DNA of 64,000 nt from Thermoproteota archaeon (GTDB lineage Archaea; Thermoproteota; EX4484-205; JAAOZP01): positions 41,981 through 105,980 of the forward strand of contig JBNAVT010000002.1 of NCBI GenBank assembly GCA_049700215.1, in the 5' to 3' direction. The notes under the pieces were generated by a model. That model saw only the letters and a program-made list of their open reading frames with translations, was not told the origin of the DNA and did no database searches. The position numbers were made by a program, and so were the translations under genes. Position 1 is the stretch's first letter. Every line of letters starts with the position of its first letter. This document shows positions 13,303-36,161 of this stretch, one piece after another.

Positions 13303-15039
13303 TCAACCTAGTGTTCCGAAGGGGAAAACGCCTGCTGAAACCCAGGCGAAGAGGAGCGCGTTGAAGACTGTGCCCGTGCCTATGGATGAGGTAATCCTGT
13401 GAAGCCACCATGAGCACGCGGTTGAGGTGACGAATTGCACCGTTATGAGCGGAAGGAACTCTATTAGGAAGCCGAGGAAAGAGGTGAGCGGCTTAACTTC
13501 GAACAGGAACATCGGGATATACTGCACGCCCATTACGAGAATGTAGGGTGCAATCTTGATCCCGATGGTTCTAAGCATTTCCAGGGCTTCCGGGAGAAAA
13601 CCGTTCTCCCTGCTTCCGCCGCGCAGAATATGCAGGTAAATCGCTTCAACGTAGAAGAAGACCAGGAAGAACGGTATGAGGGTTAGAAACAGTATGATTC
13701 TCTCCGGAACGCGGAGAACTCTGAAAATGGGTACGAAAATCCAAAGGTTCATGTCTAGGAATAGATGCACAAGGTAAACAATGGTGTAGAGCATTAGGAA
13801 CATGCTTACTGCAACCAAGACTCCTCGCCGCGTGAAGGATTCTGATGCTAATCTTCTCATTCTCAGCCTAACGCCTAAAAATCTAGGCATGGCAAACAGG
13901 ATGAGAGAACCCCCGGCTAAAGCAACCATGAGCAGCCACCAGGCTATTGAGGAGCCGAATAAAACTGGTGGGAAAGGCAGGCTGAAGCCCAGTATGAACG
14001 CTGGTAGGAGCAGCGCTATGCTCAGAGCCCCCCAAATAACCATAATCTTCCAGTCTTTAAGGGAGCCATGCTCCCGCGCCCTCTTATTCTGGGGCTTGCG
14101 CGGCGAGATGAACGTGGAGACCGGGAAGGTTAAACCTACTAGCGAGAAGACGCTCAGGAGCATCATTGTTTCACGGTAGGGGTATGTTAAGCCTTCTTCC
14201 AGCAGCCCGATTCGGCTTGCTCCACTGGGCTTGAGAGCGCTGCCCATCCAGACAACTGTTTCGGAAACAATAGTCGGGTCGAGGGGTTCAAGCAGATGGG
14301 TTGTAGCTGGGGCTACTAGTTTCCTTGCGGTTCCAGAGTTGAAATCACCGTATAGTCTTCCAGGAGAAACCTCATGAACCCCGAAAACCGGGGGTAGCCA
14401 TTCCCCAGCAACCTGGTTCAGGTTGAAAAGAACGTCCTGCCTACCTATGGCTACCAGCAGGTTCCTTGGGAAAGTGGTGTTTAGAACCCCGTATTCCAAC
14501 GGGCTGGAGGCCATTCCGCCTAAGCCTCCCGCTATGAGCACGGTTGCTTTAACCCCCCGGTGGGCGGCGGCAGCAGCCCTGACCGCTCCAGCACCCAAGC
14601 TGTGCCCAACTAGGCCGAGTGAAGAAGCGTCTACATACGGCAGCTTTTCAACGTATCTTAAGGCTGCAATAGCCCCGAGGCTGGGGTCCTTAGTTGCGCC
14701 GAGCCGCCCACCGGAGTCGCCATGGCCCACAACATCTATCGATAATGCGACGAAGCCCCTTCTAGCGAGCTCTAAGGCTATGCTGCTCATGGATTCTTTA
14801 GCACTGCTGATACCGTGCACAAGGACTACTGCCGGCATAGGGTTCTCCACGGTGGCCGCATGCGGGCGGTATAGTGCCCCGCTTATGTAGTGTTCGCCAT
14901 CCGGTATTCTAACAGTTTTTACTTCAAGCCTTCCGAAGTCGTTGTTTATTAGGAATGCTGCGACTGTCCCTAGTAGGAAGACAGTGGCTAAAACAATCAG
15001 TGTCAAACAGCTTGTTCCCGCTGGCCCCATGCGTGTCAA
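13303..15039 (-). CDS. Alpha/beta-hydrolase (serine esterase/lipase-like, GHSLG) fused to a C-terminal polytopic membrane domain
   Basis: 578 aa. N-terminal anchor, then VVLVHGISS...GLVGHSLGAG (GxSxG nucleophile elbow), followed by ~8-10 hydrophobic helices over the C-terminal 300 aa. TATA aaatatatagg upstream on the minus strand. Confidence 0.7.
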   Translation of the reverse strand: MTRMGPAGTSCLTLIVLATVFLLGTVAAFLINNDFGRLEVKTVRIPDGEHYISGALYRPHAATVENPMPAVVLVHGISSAKESMSSIALELARRGFVALSIDVVGHGDSGGRLGATKDPSLGAIAALRYVEKLPYVDASSLGLVGHSLGAGAVRAAAAAHRGVKATVLIAGGLGGMASSPLEYGVLNTTFPRNLLVAIGRQDVLFNLNQVAGEWLPPVFGVHEVSPGRLYGDFNSGTARKLVAPATTHLLEPLDPTIVSETVVWMGSALKPSGASRIGLLEEGLTYPYRETMMLLSVFSLVGLTFPVSTFISPRKPQNKRAREHGSLKDWKIMVIWGALSIALLLPAFILGFSLPFPPVLFGSSIAWWLLMVALAGGSLILFAMPRFLGVRLRMRRLASESFTRRGVLVAVSMFLMLYTIVYLVHLFLDMNLWIFVPIFRVLRVPERIILFLTLIPFFLVFFYVEAIYLHILRGGSRENGFLPEALEMLRTIGIKIAPYILVMGVQYIPMFLFEVKPLTSFLGFLIEFLPLITVQFVTSTACSWWLHRITSSIGTGTVFNALLFAWVSAGVFPFGTLG

Positions 15040-29464: not shown

Positions 29465-32340
29465 ATGTATAGGGATGAGGCGGTGGTTTGGAGTCCCGGG
29501 GATTCTGAGAAAATTGCTGGTTTTCTGAGGCGCGTATCCCCAGGTTTCACCGAGAACGCTCAGGCCAGGGCCTGGGTTGAACCTGACGGCAGGATCCTTC
29601 TTCAAATAGTGTTCATGAAAGAGGGTGTTGCAACCAGGATGCTTGAAACATTTGTCGTTAAGGATGATGGTGGGAACATCGTCAGGGTTGAGCCTCCTGA
29701 GGCGACTGGTGAAGCGGGGGAGAGCCAGCTGGAAGGCGGTTCCCAGAATCCCTGTTTAAAAACCCTTGGGGATCGCCTCAGGGTTCTCAACTGGCATCAT
29801 AGTAATTCTCTGGCTGCTGTTGCTAAGAGGCTGGTGGGCCTCGAGGTTTTTTCCACACTTCCTTCTAAAGAGGTTGACTGGGCGAGCAGTGTTTTCAACC
29901 AGGTTTTCCCCGAGTCCCCTTTAACCCTCAGGCCCTACGGGTATTTTGATAAGGAGACGAGAGAGTACGTTATAACTCGGCCAGACACGCCTACGCCCTG
30001 GATAAACTATCTCGGCCAAGGAGGCTACGGCGGAATAATATCTAACACTGCTGGAGGTTTCTCGTTCGACCGTGACCCCCGTAACCGTCGGGTTACAAGG
30101 TACCGGTACAACGCTATTCCACTGGATCAGCCTGGGCACTATATTTATCTTAGGGATGATGAAACCGGGGAGTTCTGGAGTCCAACTTGGCAGCCTGTTA
30201 AGAACAGCCTTGAATGGTATGAGTGTAGGCATGGCGCAGGCTATACTCGTATAAGCAGCAGGCGTAACGGGGTTGAGGCCTCAATACTCTTCTTCATCCC
30301 ACCTAATCCCCCCTACGGGGAGTGTCCTGTCGAGCTTCATGTGCTACGCTTAAAAAACACTAGCGCCAGCGTTAAGAGCCTGAGCATATGGTCCTACGAG
30401 GAGCTGTCATACTGGGATGCTATCGTTGACACGACTAACCTGGATTGAGGTCAGCAAATAGTTTCAAGCTCCTACAGGAATGGTGTTATTGTCACGGGGG
30501 TTCAGTTTAAACCTACTAGAACGTTCCTCGCAAGCAGCCTCGCCCCAGATGGTTACGACACTAGCCGCGAGGTTTTCGTGGGGAGCTACGGCGACCTCTC
30601 CAGGCCGCAGGCGGTTGTCAGCGGCAAGCCGGGTTACAGTATTGCTTCACGCGGCAACAGTATTGCTTCCCTCAGACATTTTCTGGAGCTGAAGCCCCGG
30701 GAGGAGGAGACAATAGTCTACGTGCTTGGCGTGACTGATAAGCCGAGTCTAATACCTGAAACCGTTGAACACTATAGTGTCGTAGAAAACGTTGAGAAGG
30801 CTTTTAAAGAGCTTGGAGAAAACTGGGGCGAATACCTTGGGAAGCTAACTGTTGAAACACCGGATGAGGAGATGAACGCTATGATAAACTTCTGGAACGC
30901 TGTTCAGTGCTGTGCCAACCTCTACTGGTCTAGATTCGTCTCCCTGTACGATACTGGTTTAGGAAGAGGCATGGGGACGCGTGACTCTGCTCAAGACACT
31001 TTGGGCACTGTGCATAATGATCCTCAGCATGCACGCAGGGTTCTGAAAATGCTCTGGAAACTACAGTTTAAAGATGGGCACACCTGGCACCAGGTTTTCC
31101 CGCTTACTGGCGAGGGGGGGCCTGGGCATGCTGCAGAATCTCCTGAGAAACCCCAGTGGTTTAGCGACGACCACCTTTGGCTCATCTTAGCGACCTGCAG
31201 CTATCTCCGTGAAACGGGTGACTTCACACTCCTGGATGAGAAGCTGCCATACCAGGATAGTGACGCGGAGGAGACTGTTTGGGAACACGTAGAGAGGGCG
31301 GTAGGCTTCACCTGCAGGAAAAGAGGATTACACGGCCTGCCGCTGATCGGCTTCGCAGACTGGGATGACACTATGAATCTTGACCATGGTTCTGAGAAGG
31401 CTGAAAGCGTCTGGACGGGGATGCTTTTCTGCAGGGTTATGCTTGACCTTGCGGAGCTTTGCAAGAAGCTTGGGCGCGTGGAGAAGATGATGGAGTTTGA
31501 AAAGCTTCACAGGGAGATGGCTGAAACAATAAACCGGGTTTCATGGGATGGTGAATGGTATGCTAGGGCTTACGACGACGAGGGCAGGCCTGTCGGCATT
31601 AAGGGTAAGAAGTATCACTGGATAAGTCTTATTCCGCAGGCTTGGTCGGCTATTGCTGAGCTCGGCGAAGAAGAGAGGTCGAGGAAAGCCTTGGAGAGTG
31701 CACGCCGGTTTTTAAACAGCCTTTAGGATTAAGGCTGATGAGAGACCCGTTTAACAGCAGTAAGACGGATGAGGATTCAGTGGATGTTGAGAGCCTGAGG
31801 CGTTTCGGCGGAACAGCAACATACCCGCCTGGGCTCAAGGAGAATGGTGGAATATTCAACCATGCTAACACTTGGGTTATTGTTGCAGCCGCCAAGCTCG
31901 GGCTTGGAGACCTCGCCTACCAGTTTTACAGCCAGATAATGCCGCTTAGACGTAGAGATACGGATGCTCTTAAGACTGAGCCCTACGTGTATTCTCAGAA
32001 TCTGGCTGCCCCGGAGCATCCTGAGTATGGGCGTGCAAGAAACTCGTGGCTCACCGGCACAGCCTCATGGGTTTACGTGGCTGCGACACAATGGATTCTC
32101 GGCATACGCCCCACCTTCGAAGGGTTGAAAATATCTCCATGCATACCGGAATCCTGGAGCGGCTTCAAGGCTCGAAGGGTCTTCAGAGGAGTGACGTACA
32201 ATATTCTCGTTAAACGTGTTGGAAAGGGTAACAAGGTTTCGCTCAAGGTGAATAGTAAGCATGTTCCCGGAGAAGTTGTTCCGCTTCCAATCGAGGATGT
32301 GGCGAGCGTGGAAGTAGAGGTCGCGCTCGGAGGGCAATAG
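29465..32340 (+). pseudogene. GH94 cellobiose/cellodextrin phosphorylase, disrupted by one in-frame TGA (~30446) and one frameshift (~31720)
   Basis: Three ORFs cover the N-terminal domain (RPYGYFDKETREYVITRPDTPTPWINYLG), the catalytic (alpha/alpha)6 region (GRGMGTRDSAQDTLG) and the C-terminal domain (NGGIFNHANTWVI...). ORF1 and ORF2 are in the same frame and separated by TGA (...TTNLD*GQQIV...). ORF2 to ORF3 needs a 1-nt correction near aacagcc/tttagg. Confidence 0.75.
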
Positions 32341-32414: not shown

Positions 32415-33503
32415 ATGAGGAGGTTTCTTAAACTCCCCACGGATCCAATTGACGTTAGCCCGGATAAAAAGATTAGTCAGCTGACTGATGAAATGCTGTT
32501 CACAGGCTTTCAGGGTAGGAAGGTTGCTGAGGTTGTTCAAGTATGGTCGAGAATGCTTAATAAAAGGAATATCGTAATATGGTTCGGCTTAGCCGGCGCC
32601 ATGGTTCCAGCCGGGATGAGGAGACTAATCTCGTACCTGATTGAAAGGAGAATGATCGACGCGGTTGTCTCGACTGGCGCAAATCTTTACCACGATCTCT
32701 TTGAAGCCCTAGGCGGGAAGCACTATGTCGGAACCCACATGATAGATGATGTTAAGCTGAGGAGGGAGAGGGTTGACAGGATTTACGACGTTTTCGCAGA
32801 CGAGAACAAGTTCTACGAGACCGATCTCTGGATAGAAAAGTTTTTCGCCAGGACGCTTAGGGACGATTACCCCTATTCCTCTCGTGAATTACTCTATCTT
32901 CTCGGGAAGCTTTTAAGCAAGAATGCTAAGGATAAAGACTCCATTCTTGTAAGCGCCTACAGGAGCGGCGTCCCAATATTCTGCCCCGCGTTCGGAGACA
33001 GCTCCCTGGGTTTCTCGATAATGTTCTCCAACAGGAGGGAGAGGGTTGCAAGCATGAACGGGAAGAAGGTTGTCCTTAAGAGGAAGAGGATAATTGTCGA
33101 CTATCTTAAGGATGTTGACGAGAGCTCCAGAATAACTGAGAAGGCGAAGCAGACTGGGGTGATATACATAGGTGGAGGCGTGCCCAAGAATTTTATTCAG
33201 CAAACCGCTGTGATAGCGAGCTACCAGACCAGGCACGATAGAAGCCATAGTTTTGCGATACAGATCTCCACGGACATGCCGCAGTGGGGAGGCCTATCGG
33301 GATGCACATTCGAGGAGGGTCAAAGCTGGGGGAAAATCGGGTTCCGAGCCCAGAGAGTGCAGTGCTACGCTGACGCCACCATAGTGCTTCCGCTCATAGT
33401 TCATTCTTTAAGCGAAAAGTTCAAGAGGCTTAGAAGGGATGTTCCAATCTTCGAATGGAAGGGTAGTGATTTGAAGATAACTTATGAGAGGATGAAGCTT
33501 TAG
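32415..33503 (+). CDS. dys: Deoxyhypusine synthase
   Basis: 362 aa. ...GLAGAMVPAGMR...STGANLYHD...GGGVPKNF...QWGGLSG are hallmark DHS motifs. Confidence 0.9.
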   Translation: MRRFLKLPTDPIDVSPDKKISQLTDEMLFTGFQGRKVAEVVQVWSRMLNKRNIVIWFGLAGAMVPAGMRRLISYLIERRMIDAVVSTGANLYHDLFEALGGKHYVGTHMIDDVKLRRERVDRIYDVFADENKFYETDLWIEKFFARTLRDDYPYSSRELLYLLGKLLSKNAKDKDSILVSAYRSGVPIFCPAFGDSSLGFSIMFSNRRERVASMNGKKVVLKRKRIIVDYLKDVDESSRITEKAKQTGVIYIGGGVPKNFIQQTAVIASYQTRHDRSHSFAIQISTDMPQWGGLSGCTFEEGQSWGKIGFRAQRVQCYADATIVLPLIVHSLSEKFKRLRRDVPIFEWKGSDLKITYERMKL

Positions 33504-33506
33504 CCG

Positions 33507-34907
33507 TTAGACGATAGCCTCCCCCCTCTCGGTTAGGGAATAATACTCCCTCTTCCTACCCATGACCCTCCTAGACTCCCCCCTCTTAACATACCCTTTT
33601 TCAACAAGGTCGGAAAGATGCTGGTAGACAGTTGGAATCCTGACCTTCATACCGTATTTCTCCCTTAGCCCCCTCCAAACCTCGTACCCATACATGTTTT
33701 TCTCAGACAGTAGCCTAAGGATAGCTGTCTTAGTCGGGCCCAGTCTAATACCTCCGCTCAACTCCTCTATCAACACGCCTAGGCTGGACTTTCTGAAGGC
33801 TATTTCCTTCATAACCCTCGGATCCTTGAGGCCGCTTCCCGTGACGACGCAAACCACCCTGGCGTCCCTGCTTAAGCCTCCGCTTCTAACCAGCTTAATC
33901 AAGCCGGCTAGGGAAAGGCTTCCAGCCGGCTCTGCAAGTATGCCTTCCTTCTCAGCCAGTAGACTCAGGGCTTCGAAGATCTCTTTCTCGCTGACGGATA
34001 CTGCGAGCCCGCCTGTCTGTCTTATTGCGCTCAGGGCAGCGTTTCCAAACCTGGGGTTGGCCACGTTTAAGTCGAATATCCTGCTTCTCGGCTCGGCTTC
34101 AGCCTCAACGGTTTCTAAGCCTCTTTCGAAAGCCTTTACTATGGGCTTACAGTCCTCCGGCTGGACTCCGACTATTCCTATACTGCGCTTAGCGACGCCG
34201 AGCTCCCTCAGCTCCTTCAGCATCTTGAAGGTTGCGTAGACTAGGCCTCCTTCTCCCATCGGGAGAATAACATAGTCTGGTTGCCTCCCGCTGAGCTGAA
34301 GCAGTATTTCAAGCATGATTGTTTTCTTAGCCTCGTTTATCAAGGGGTCGTGCTCCACGGCTACGATAGCCCCCCTAGTGCTACGCTTCCCAAAGGAGTT
34401 GACTACGCTGACTTCTGCACCATATATTATCATCTGGTAGAGCTTTCCAAGGTCTATTGTGGGCTTTACCTGAACGTGCGTCTTTAAACCTGCTTTAGAG
34501 GAGTATGCGGCCAGCGAGGCGCCAAGGTTCCCGGTTGAATAGGTGGAAATCCTCCCGTAGCCGAGACTCAGGGCGACGGATACGAATAAGGCTGAACTCC
34601 TGTCCAAGTAGGAGCCCGTTGGCTCAACCGTCTCATCCTTAATCCAAAGCTCTTCAACCCCGATGCTTTTCTCAATCCTCACCCCGTGCTGGAGCATTGT
34701 GGTCCCCTCTCCGAGAGAGACTCTGAACTTTCTCTCGACAGCCGGCAGTATCCCGCCATACCTCCATATTCCATGCTCCCCGGGCTCCTCTAAGAAGGAT
34801 GGTTTAACCTCCAGTGTTAATCCTTGTCCACACTTATCACACAGCTTCCTCTCCACGTTGAAACTGTAGGCTGCTCCGCAGCCCGTGCATCTTAGAACAT
34901 GGTTCAA
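33507..34907 (-). CDS. thrC: Threonine synthase with N-terminal zinc ribbon and an unusual C-terminal PadR-like winged-helix domain
   Basis: 466 aa. N-terminal CTGCG...CDKCG ribbon and a PLP fold-type II body (GNLGASLAAYSSKAG...). The C-terminal ~85 aa TKTAILRLLSEKNMYGYEVWRGLREKYGMKVRIPTVYQHLSDLVEKGYVKRGESRRVMGRKREYYSLTERG match the PadR family pattern in one continuous ORF. Confidence 0.8.
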   Translation of the reverse strand: MNHVLRCTGCGAAYSFNVERKLCDKCGQGLTLEVKPSFLEEPGEHGIWRYGGILPAVERKFRVSLGEGTTMLQHGVRIEKSIGVEELWIKDETVEPTGSYLDRSSALFVSVALSLGYGRISTYSTGNLGASLAAYSSKAGLKTHVQVKPTIDLGKLYQMIIYGAEVSVVNSFGKRSTRGAIVAVEHDPLINEAKKTIMLEILLQLSGRQPDYVILPMGEGGLVYATFKMLKELRELGVAKRSIGIVGVQPEDCKPIVKAFERGLETVEAEAEPRSRIFDLNVANPRFGNAALSAIRQTGGLAVSVSEKEIFEALSLLAEKEGILAEPAGSLSLAGLIKLVRSGGLSRDARVVCVVTGSGLKDPRVMKEIAFRKSSLGVLIEELSGGIRLGPTKTAILRLLSEKNMYGYEVWRGLREKYGMKVRIPTVYQHLSDLVEKGYVKRGESRRVMGRKREYYSLTERGEAIV

Positions 34908-35075
34908 AGCTATGCCCCATCCTAATATATAGGGGGATACTTATACATTTCCTCTCTGCTTGCAGCAATCGTTTCCCGCCAATAAGGATCCGGCTCAGCG
35001 AAACCCCTCTCGCCGCTTAAAAAGCCCCTTATGCAAGGCTGATTAAGCGGTCGTAGCAATCGTTTTATAGTTCCT

Positions 35076-36161
35076 GTGGCATTAAACCTATGGATGCAAA
35101 AACCGGATTCAAGGATGGCTCTAACGCTAGCAATACTTATTATAATTCTCTACGTAAGCCTGCTTATGGTGCAACGGACTGGGAGAAGAGTGTCACAGGG
35201 AAACTCAAGCAGCATCGAGGAGTATTTCAAAACAGTTCCCCTTGAGAAACTGGAGGTTAAGTTCTTCGGATGGGTTACGCCGGACGGTGAAAGCATCAAC
35301 AGTTTTCTGGCTAACGCTGAAAAGTTCACCTGGGTTTCTCCAACAGGCTCGATAGTCAATGAACACGGGGTTTTCACCCCTAGAGTGGACAGTAGGGTTG
35401 TCGAGGCTGCTAGAAGGAGTAACGTAAGTATTGTTCCGCTTGTAGCAAACTCAGGCTTCGACAGGAGCTTGGCTCACAGAATCCTTGCGGATCCTGAGGT
35501 TAGAAGACGCACGATAGAAGACATAGTCAGCTTCGTTGTTGAGAACAATTTTTCAGGGATCAACATTGATTACGAGAACATTCCTCCTGAGGATAGGAGT
35601 GCGTTAAACTCGTACATGAGGGAGCTGGCTTCAATCCTACACTCCCACGGGAAGATTGTTACTATAGATGTCTCGGGCAAAACTTGGGACGATGCCTCCG
35701 GTTGGGGTGGCGCATGGGACTACAGGGCTCTAGGCGAGGCCTGTGACTACGTCTGCATAATGTGTTATGATTATCATTGGTCTGGGAGCGAAGCGGGCCC
35801 CATAGGACCCTTAGGCTGGCTCAGGGAAGTCGTTGAATATGCTCTTTCAACAATACCGAGGGAGAAGATAGTAATCGGTATTCCCTTCTACGGTTACAGG
35901 TGGCTCGGGAGAAACGGTGTTGGCCTAACTTTTAAACAGGCGTTGGAGACGGCCAGGAGCGTTGATACGGAGGTTTTTTTCAGCGAGGAGGATGCTGAAT
36001 ACCACTATTCTTACGGCTCATACGAAGTATGGTTCCAGGGTGCGAAGTCGGTGGAGCTAAAGGCTTCCGCAGTGCTTTCACACGGGATAGATAAGATAGC
36101 TGCCTGGAGAGTTGGGCAAGAGGATCCGAGGGTCTGGGAGGTTATAAGCAGGAAGCCTTAA
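35076..36161 (+). CDS. Glycoside hydrolase family 18-like protein (chitinase-like TIM barrel), membrane-anchored
   Basis: 361 aa. N-terminal transmembrane segment. FSGINIDYENIPPED carries the GH18 catalytic DxDxE motif, and aromatic MCYDYHW is typical of GH18. Confidence 0.65.
   Translation: MALNLWMQKPDSRMALTLAILIIILYVSLLMVQRTGRRVSQGNSSSIEEYFKTVPLEKLEVKFFGWVTPDGESINSFLANAEKFTWVSPTGSIVNEHGVFTPRVDSRVVEAARRSNVSIVPLVANSGFDRSLAHRILADPEVRRRTIEDIVSFVVENNFSGINIDYENIPPEDRSALNSYMRELASILHSHGKIVTIDVSGKTWDDASGWGGAWDYRALGEACDYVCIMCYDYHWSGSEAGPIGPLGWLREVVEYALSTIPREKIVIGIPFYGYRWLGRNGVGLTFKQALETARSVDTEVFFSEEDAEYHYSYGSYEVWFQGAKSVELKASAVLSHGIDKIAAWRVGQEDPRVWEVISRKP

Follow-up and report, generated by a model that had tools for sequence, protein, structure and literature searches.

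Among the archaeal vitamin regulators, ThiR combines an enzyme domain with a DNA-binding domain. RbkR, which was identified by comparative genomics, joins a pathway-enzyme fold to a winged helix-turn-helix (wHTH) domain (PMC5397151). For vitamin B6, the bacterial MocR/PdxR regulators, which sense pyridoxal 5'-phosphate (PLP), control pdxST, pdxK and pdxU and have been reported to be absent from Archaea (PMC5320631). Here, we describe a gene on the reverse strand (33507..34907) of a 64 kb stretch of DNA from a Thermoproteota archaeon (contig JBNAVT010000002.1; the whole stretch of 64,000 nucleotides is referred to as the window). The encoded protein of 466 amino acids consists of a zinc ribbon, a domain resembling threonine synthase (ThrC) that lacks the catalytic lysine and a C-terminal PadR-type wHTH domain. 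Judging from the sequence and its genomic associations, we put at roughly 65% the probability that the gene encodes an autoregulated transcription factor, derived from threonine synthase and non-catalytic, that responds to vitamin B6 (PLP or another vitamer). The odds lean slightly towards a wider proposal: that the family to which it belongs is the missing archaeal B6 regulator, a lysine-less fold-type II pseudoenzyme with reversibly bound PLP as its effector, which would control pdxST and a PdxU-like energy-coupling factor (ECF) transporter through a 24 bp repeat and would have arisen convergently with PdxR.

The family resembles PdxR/MocR in that a sensory domain derived from a PLP enzyme is fused to a winged helix, in that the PdxR/MocR regulon classes pdxST and pdxU are also its neighbours, and in that regulator and target are typically divergent. 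The components differ. In MocR proteins a GntR wHTH at the N-terminus is combined with a fold-type I (aminotransferase) domain, and the PLP lysine is kept; in the present family the wHTH is of the PadR type and C-terminal, the ThrC-like domain is of fold type II and lacks the lysine, and there is a zinc ribbon in addition. No GntR match was found in a Pfam scan of the query protein, and the resemblance is one of analogy and not of homology. With RbkR the family shares the combination of an enzyme fold and a wHTH, a lineage-wide distribution in archaea and the predicted control of biosynthesis and transport genes of a single vitamin. The fold is unrelated to that of RbkR and the vitamin is a different one; moreover, RbkR keeps its riboflavin kinase activity, whereas the present protein lacks the catalytic residue. 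The protein has in common with ThrC (TIGR00260, PRK08197, PRK05638) the fold, the PRK08197-type zinc ribbon and the PTGS..DR, SxGN and TGxGLKD motifs, but it lacks the Schiff-base lysine, scores under the equivalog cutoffs, carries an extra PadR domain and lies in a context unrelated to threonine synthesis. With PadR proteins (PDB entries 1xma, 5dym, 4esf and 5zqh) it shares a wHTH with the YGY / YQHL / YY-LT-G signature and a candidate inverted-repeat operator. In canonical PadR proteins an N-terminal wHTH is followed by dimerizing helices and the effector lies at the dimer interface; here, the wHTH stands at the C-terminus, and a wider gap separates the half-sites than in the PadR operator of the ATGT-N8-ACAT type.

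An earlier note on this DNA, made from the letters alone, had described one continuous open reading frame (ORF) that joins a complete ThrC to a PadR-type winged helix. The ORF is indeed uninterrupted over 466 residues in the ORF list of the window, from a TTG start codon to a stop codon at 33507-33509, and upstream of the TTG codon the first in-frame stop is at 34941-34943. The TTG start is also found in close orthologues of the window's subclade; in the more distant orthologue of L016 an ATG lies one codon before it. The N-terminal zinc ribbon (residues 5-33; 34809..34895, reverse strand) contains Cys7, Cys10, Cys23 and Cys26 in a CxxC...CxxC arrangement, all four of which are at least 90% conserved in the family alignment. 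It gives weak zinc-ribbon matches in Pfam and three short strands in the AlphaFold2 (AF2) model. The fold-type II PLP-fold domain (residues 63-357; 33837..34721, reverse strand) matches Pfam PALP (PF00291) with an E-value of 2.1e-56. Its best PDB sequence and fold matches are the threonine synthases 2zsj, 6cgq and 1uim, the top Foldseek matches are ThrC structures with template-modelling (TM) scores (target) of 0.80-0.83, and its identity to solved ThrC structures is 29-34%. The zinc ribbon and the fold-type II body were thus recognized correctly in the note.

The same applies to the C-terminal wHTH (residues 391-466; 33510..33737, reverse strand), which was assigned from Pfam PadR (PF03551) and the AF2 model. 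The Pfam match covers residues 396-464 (E-value 4.4e-14; 52.7 bits versus a gathering score of 27), and the tail alone scores 54.9 bits against the same profile. PadR/RosR structures (1xma, 5dym, 4esf, 5zqh and 6qfd) were matched by sequence. In the model the domain comprises helices 391-402, 407-418 and 424-436 and strands 440-448 and 451-458, with a predicted local distance difference test (pLDDT) of about 83-94; the recognition helix is IPTVYQHLSDLVEKG and the β-hairpin wing spans residues 440-458. Conservation across the family is strong in the recognition-helix motif VYQHLxEL and in the wing. Beyond the wing there is only a six-residue helix (460-465), so that the domain ends 5-6 residues after the wing, in contrast to the canonical PadR layout of an N-terminal wHTH followed by C-terminal dimerization helices. 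A two-helix linker (residues 358-390; 33738..33836, reverse strand) connects the two parts; its helices (363-373 and 375-386) were modelled with low confidence (pLDDT 56-74 over about residues 360-390). The AF2 model of the whole protein, calculated from a 35-sequence alignment, has a mean pLDDT of 88.6 and a predicted TM score of 0.80. The PDB fold search gave no precedent for the two-domain arrangement and returned single-domain ThrC-type matches only.

The ThrC part is not complete, because the position of the Schiff-base lysine is occupied by leucine, which was overlooked in the note. In HMMER alignments to 2zsj, 6cgq and 1uim, the TTG codon at 34605-34607 (reverse strand) encodes Leu101, which aligns with Lys61 of Thermus thermophilus ThrC (1uim) and the equivalent lysines of 2zsj and 6cgq; the query reads EPTGSYLDRSS where ThrC has the PTGSFKDRG motif. 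A lysine at this position is found in none of 114 close homologues with a recognizable motif (Leu 59, Ile 29, Met 10, Arg 7, Phe 5 and Val 3) and in none of the 78 loci with a readable motif among 79 species-level loci. The NCBIfam cutoffs for threonine synthase are all missed (PRK05638, 246.9 versus 421; TIGR00260, 136.4 versus 167.1; PRK08197, 219.8 versus 303). From sequence comparison, the gene product is predicted to be a non-working copy of threonine synthase, the catalytic lysine having been lost.

Loss of the lysine goes with possession of the PadR tail. Fused and unfused proteins were compared using 150 diverse proteins drawn from 1.84 billion cluster representatives at 50% identity. 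With a readable motif, the counts are 72 with the tail and a residue other than lysine, two with the tail and lysine, 62 with lysine and no tail and three with neither (Fisher P = 3.9e-33); that is, a non-lysine residue occurs in 72/74 PadR-fused proteins and lysine is kept in 62/65 unfused proteins. The three unfused proteins without lysine are a fragment (P0174), a frameshifted protein of the Arg type (P0235) and P0162, which has 519 residues, a valine at the position and no detected tail. P0161 and P0177 are PadR-fused yet keep the lysine (NPTSSFKDRS and NPTNSFKDRA); they are otherwise like the Arg type, may be Arg-to-Lys revertants or ancestral bifunctional forms, and would be useful for dating the loss of the lysine relative to the fusion.

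The rest of the cofactor site has been retained in part. The equivalents of Asn87 and of Thr317-Gly-x-Gly-Leu-Lys, which we take to be PLP-ring contacts, are conserved in 114/114 homologues, PTGS...DR is invariant in the family and the 'asparagine loop' S-x-G-N is retained. These cofactor-ring contacts are still under the constraint seen in real enzymes. The glycine-rich PLP-phosphate loop, GNAGN in ThrC, has become G-[E/S/T]-G-G-[L/H] (GEGGL in the query), and Glu219 is present in 51/114 homologues. As a speculation, this glutamate in the window's clade may favour unphosphorylated vitamers. The phosphate of O-phosphohomoserine is presumably bound by Thr88, Asn154, Ser155, Arg160 and Asn188 (T. 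thermophilus numbering); the equivalents here are Leu, Val, a gap or Glu, Ile and Glu. These substitutions were at first considered strong support for a loss of catalysis and were downgraded to weak evidence, because the nearest unfused, lysine-containing relatives vary at the same positions.

The association with vitamin B6 comes from the genomic neighbourhood, tallied over the 79 species-level loci. An ECF S-component gene (PF07155; ECF-S) is immediately adjacent in 57 and lies at 2.3 kb in one, and pdxS-pdxT, encoding PLP synthase, is adjacent in five. Linkage to B6 genes (pdxST or PdxU-like) is found in 63/79 loci, and six loci are truncated at the end of a contig. The 1.17 Mb examined contain 58 ECF-S ORFs, all of them regulator-associated. 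For the Leu, Ile, Val and Met types at the lysine position ECF-S is divergent at 15-160 bp, and for the Arg type (Bathyarchaeia) it is co-directional, 42-113 bp downstream. Orthologues with 70-77% identity at loci L011-13, L016-18, L024, L094, L095 and L097 instead have pdxS-pdxT, with pdxS divergent from the regulator at 18-62 bp. These carriers are the nearest relatives of the window outside its own subclade and show the same synteny (GH18, the gene, deoxyhypusine synthase, GH94, where GH denotes glycoside hydrolase families), with the pdxS-pdxT operon and a transaldolase gene between GH18 and the regulator. No recurrent threonine- or methionine-pathway gene was seen beside the regulator gene in the inspected loci. 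The main argument for B6 as the effector or pathway is that a B6-type transporter and PLP synthase take turns as the neighbour. The Arg-type locus L090 (DATHCJ010000024.1) has pdxS-pdxT 3 bp downstream in place of ECF-S; its contig is assigned to a 'Candidatus Limnocylindrales bacterium' metagenome-assembled genome (MAG), and either an archaeal contig was mis-binned or a transfer into Bacteria took place.

The sole PDB sequence match of the ECF-S neighbour is chain S of 4HZU (HmpT/PdxU2; E-value 9e-15). Of the proposed HmpT pocket residues, three out of six are identical in the neighbour, one is replaced conservatively (Glu41 to Asp) and two differ. The substrate extracted with HmpT/PdxU2 was pyridoxamine (PMC4860826), and the B6 transporters PdxU and PdxU2 both belong to PF07155 (PMC9997740).

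A candidate operator overlaps the core promoter of the gene (34921..34948, reverse strand). It consists of ATGTATAAG (34940-34948), the spacer TATCCC (34934-34939) and CCTATATATTAGG (34921-34933), ends 13 nt before the TTG start and contains a 24-mer part at 34925-34948. It occurs once in the window, with 0.00 occurrences expected by chance (100 shuffles). A 30 bp block, AAATGTATAAGTAT[T/C]NCCCTATATAT, is invariant upstream of nine orthologues, including four loci without pdxST, while the flanking intergenic DNA diverges. Across phyla, the genes of the Leu, Ile and Val types are preceded by a 24 bp inverted repeat, ATATATAAG-N6-CCTATATAT, the fuller form of which is ATATATAAG-N6-CCTATATATAGG(C). 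In 27 species this element starts 32-48 nt before the start codon (mode 39), most of its positions are invariant and 7-8 of the nine outer positions are self-complementary. The PadR operator ATGT-N8-ACAT was also considered and was rejected, as the ATGT of the window's left box has no ACAT partner; the family-wide element was therefore preferred. At L001, L014, L015, L093, L098 and in the window, the right box has a 1 nt insertion and reads CCTATATAT-T-AGG instead of CCTATATATAGG.

Within 1.14 Mb of locus DNA, the element lies mainly at the regulator and its presumed target. The bipartite pattern was found directly upstream of the regulator and as a reverse-oriented copy at -80 (L030), and 28 of 33 occurrences of the 12-mer palindrome with GC flanks (at most one mismatch) are within 60 bp upstream of the regulator. 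Three of the remaining five (L021, L069 and L030) lie 30-65 bp upstream of an ECF-S gene. Where ECF-S is not divergent from the regulator, the palindrome is found upstream of ECF-S itself, at 33 bp (L021), 47 bp (L004) and 30 bp (L069, where the ECF-S gene is 2.4 kb from the regulator). The palindrome in L030 is 65 bp from the regulator start and 51 bp from the end of the ECF-S ORF as called. Because the palindrome is present at relocated ECF-S genes, the element follows the presumed target. None of 32 Arg-type loci has the element, and the Arg-type wHTH differs in wing length and at the N-terminus of the recognition helix (R-A-A-I versus I-P-S/T-V), as expected if protein and site co-vary. 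The Arg-type loci (e.g. L008, L044, L054, L055, L060, L083 and L088) share another motif, approximately TTGTAAAC[A/G]TTAAAAAG, about 60-70 nt upstream, which could be a BRE/TATA promoter (BRE, transcription factor B recognition element) or a distinct operator. A further palindrome copy, GCCTATATATAAGC, was observed at position 14845 of L047, a Bathyarchaeota locus without an ECF-S gene beside its regulator; the DJ-1/PfpI-family ORF that begins 68 bp downstream of this copy (14187-14777, reverse strand) may be an additional regulon member.

These features suggest the following mechanism. Dimerization and sensing would have to come from the ThrC-like body, because the wHTH lacks C-terminal dimerization helices; ThrC enzymes are homodimers, and the body is predicted to form the dimer in the same way. 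After loss of the Schiff-base lysine a B6 vitamer would bind reversibly and non-covalently in the retained cofactor pocket, and its occupancy would shift the position of the two C-terminal winged helices, which in turn would recognize the inverted repeat ATATATAAG-N6-CCTATATAT. In archaea the centre of the TATA box lies some 26 nt before the transcription start. At the promoters of both the regulator and the divergent target, the repeat appears to overlap the TATA/BRE region. The left box comes after a BRE-like, purine-rich GGAAA and would serve as the TATA box of the regulator, giving a leader of roughly 8-10 nt; the right palindrome would then lie between the TATA box and the transcription start. 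On the other strand the roles would be reversed for the divergent target. As is usual for archaeal repressors, a dimer across the repeat would block the access of TBP/TFB or RNA polymerase to both promoters, and repression would occur when B6 is plentiful. Across archaea the targets would be a PdxU/HmpT-like ECF S-component or the pdxS-pdxT operon. The nearest outgroup relatives have a pdxS-pdxT-transaldolase block that is missing from the window, which is why the autoregulatory site is the only one present there.

Several observations weigh against a B6-responsive regulator. A tblastn search of the window with seven seed proteins gave no match to pdxS, pdxT or ECF-S, and no B6 gene is adjacent in the window or in its subclade (L001, L014, L015, L093 and L098), so that the regulatory targets are either elsewhere or lost. 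No second copy of the operator was found for the window's clade in a metagenome scan with ATGTATAAGTATNNNCCTATATAT, which returned only regulator promoters and two AT-rich chance matches (L096 and L099). With neither a B6-type gene nor a second operator in the window, only autoregulation can therefore be proposed there. The 1 nt insertion in the right box is confined to the subclade without a divergent pdxS, with the left box and the spacing invariant. In the wider family, 10/79 loci have neither B6-type neighbour. The ECF-S neighbour falls below all NCBIfam cutoffs, and its B6 substrate, assigned from homology, is plausible and not secure. The altered phosphate loop may disfavour PLP itself, both boxes of the element are TATA-like and could form a specialized divergent core promoter instead of an operator, and the binding of DNA and of a ligand is predicted from sequence.

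Among the other explanations, the one that we regard as unlikely rather than remote keeps the transcription factor and changes the effector, to threonine, O-phosphohomoserine or a PLP-amino-acid adduct, with ECF-S serving another micronutrient. The descent of the domain from an amino-acid-metabolizing enzyme, the retained S-x-G-N loop, which contacts the substrate carboxylate, and the changed PLP-phosphate loop would all fit, as would an ECF-S that is under all curated cutoffs and differs non-conservatively at 2/6 HmpT pocket residues. However, B6 is the common factor of the alternating neighbours, threonine- and methionine-pathway genes do not recur beside the gene, and the presumed O-phosphohomoserine phosphate positions are now hydrophobic (their roles are again taken from the T. 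thermophilus ThrC structures). It is less probable still that the wHTH does not bind DNA sequence-specifically and mediates protein contacts or dimerization, the AT-rich element being a strong divergent core promoter. Both boxes do look like archaeal TATA boxes and are located where core promoters are expected, and wHTH folds sometimes serve protein contacts. Against this reading, the VYQHLxEL motif and the wing are highly conserved, 28/33 palindromes are at the regulator and three of the other five near ECF-S and not at other promoters, the element goes with ECF-S once this gene is apart from the regulator, and the window's subclade has kept it without change despite the loss of the divergent target.

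The earlier note had suggested a moonlighting enzyme. Its idea of a DNA-binding, autoregulatory or ligand-sensing protein is in keeping with the inverted repeat in the gene's own promoter; its enzyme is not, as the lysine is absent. A genuine bifunctional threonine synthase with autoregulation is accordingly given very little credence here. By profile and by fold the protein is closest to threonine synthases, the relatives are so named in databases and two fused representatives (P0161 and P0177) have the lysine, but the Schiff-base position is Leu in the query, the lysine is absent from 72/74 fused proteins and kept in 59/59 full-length unfused ones, the score is under all ThrC equivalog cutoffs and the gene context is that of B6 and not of threonine. 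An artefactual fusion of two genes, with the stop between them masked by a sequencing or assembly error, is the least probable of all. Local errors or pseudogenes do exist in the window (see the GH94 gene below), but PF00291 and PF03551 are both present in 120/120 of the best database homologues, relatives are encoded in at least 590 matching stretches of a one-genome-per-species collection, the continuous architecture recurs at the same length across several phyla, in hundreds of independent assemblies, and both parts are covered by the curated model PRK05638. The fusion is therefore no sequencing artefact, and the hidden stop that the note had named as a possible refutation is effectively ruled out by this conservation; the survey of orthologues that it had proposed finds the extension in the best homologues without exception.

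The relatives span the TACK and Asgard groups (Brockarchaeota, Bathyarchaeia, Nitrososphaeria, Methanomethylicia and Caldarchaeum, and Thor-, Hermod-, Prometh-, Jord- and Baldr-archaeota among the Asgard archaea). The closest are from two MAGs, one labelled 'uncultured Nitrososphaerota' (95%) and the other Candidatus Brockarchaeota (88%), which makes a Brockarchaeota-like TACK archaeon the probable source of the DNA. When cultured hosts were sought with the Arg-type member P0117, the matches listed were all Bathyarchaeia proteins of metagenomic or MAG origin. The note's statement that no such fusion is known holds for characterized enzymes and not for databases: the NCBIfam model PRK05638 ('threonine synthase') covers the whole architecture, with the PadR tail at model positions 369-437. 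Several lysine-less members, including P0117 (205.8 versus 167.1), P0072, P0107 and P0087, pass the TIGR00260 thrC cutoff, and relatives in NCBI and JGI are mostly called 'threonine synthase'. This naming of lysine-less members is probably a systematic misannotation. A full-text literature search found no description of the family as a regulator, although one may exist outside the literature searched.

If the proposed function is correct, the family would provide a candidate regulator of archaeal vitamin B6 homeostasis where PdxR/MocR have been reported to be absent (PMC5320631). It would also be a case of an enzyme turned sensor, in which loss of the Schiff-base lysine is almost perfectly coupled to the gain of a DNA-binding domain. 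The systematic misannotation of thousands of lysine-less proteins as 'threonine synthase' would be corrected, and with it a source of distortion (e.g. inferred threonine prototrophy) in the metabolic reconstruction of uncultured archaea such as Bathyarchaeia and Asgard. Indirect functional support would be gained for an archaeal PdxU-like B6 transporter, B6 transport in archaea having been described as poorly studied (PMC9997740), and the defined operator could be used for regulon prediction.

Both neighbours given in the note are present. The deoxyhypusine synthase gene (32415-33503, forward strand) is convergent with the regulator gene and 3 bp from it, and the divergent GH18 gene (35076-36161, forward strand) starts 168 bp upstream of it. 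Farther along, a GH94 (cellobiose/chitobiose phosphorylase-like) gene (29465-32340, forward strand) is broken into three ORFs by an in-frame stop at 30446-30448 and a 1 nt deletion near 31720, as judged against the intact 958-residue orthologue of L001 (95.3% nucleotide identity); the gene has either decayed to a pseudogene or been misassembled. The intergenic region between the regulator and GH18 contains an exact 11 nt direct repeat, AGCAATCGTTT (34964-34974 and 35055-35065, 91 nt apart), one copy of which adjoins the GH18 promoter-like sequence CTATAAAA, and a 14 nt inverted repeat (35013-35026 and 35037-35050; 86% complementary, with a 10 nt loop). These repeats may be a regulatory site of GH18 or the scar of a lost pdxS-pdxT-transaldolase block.

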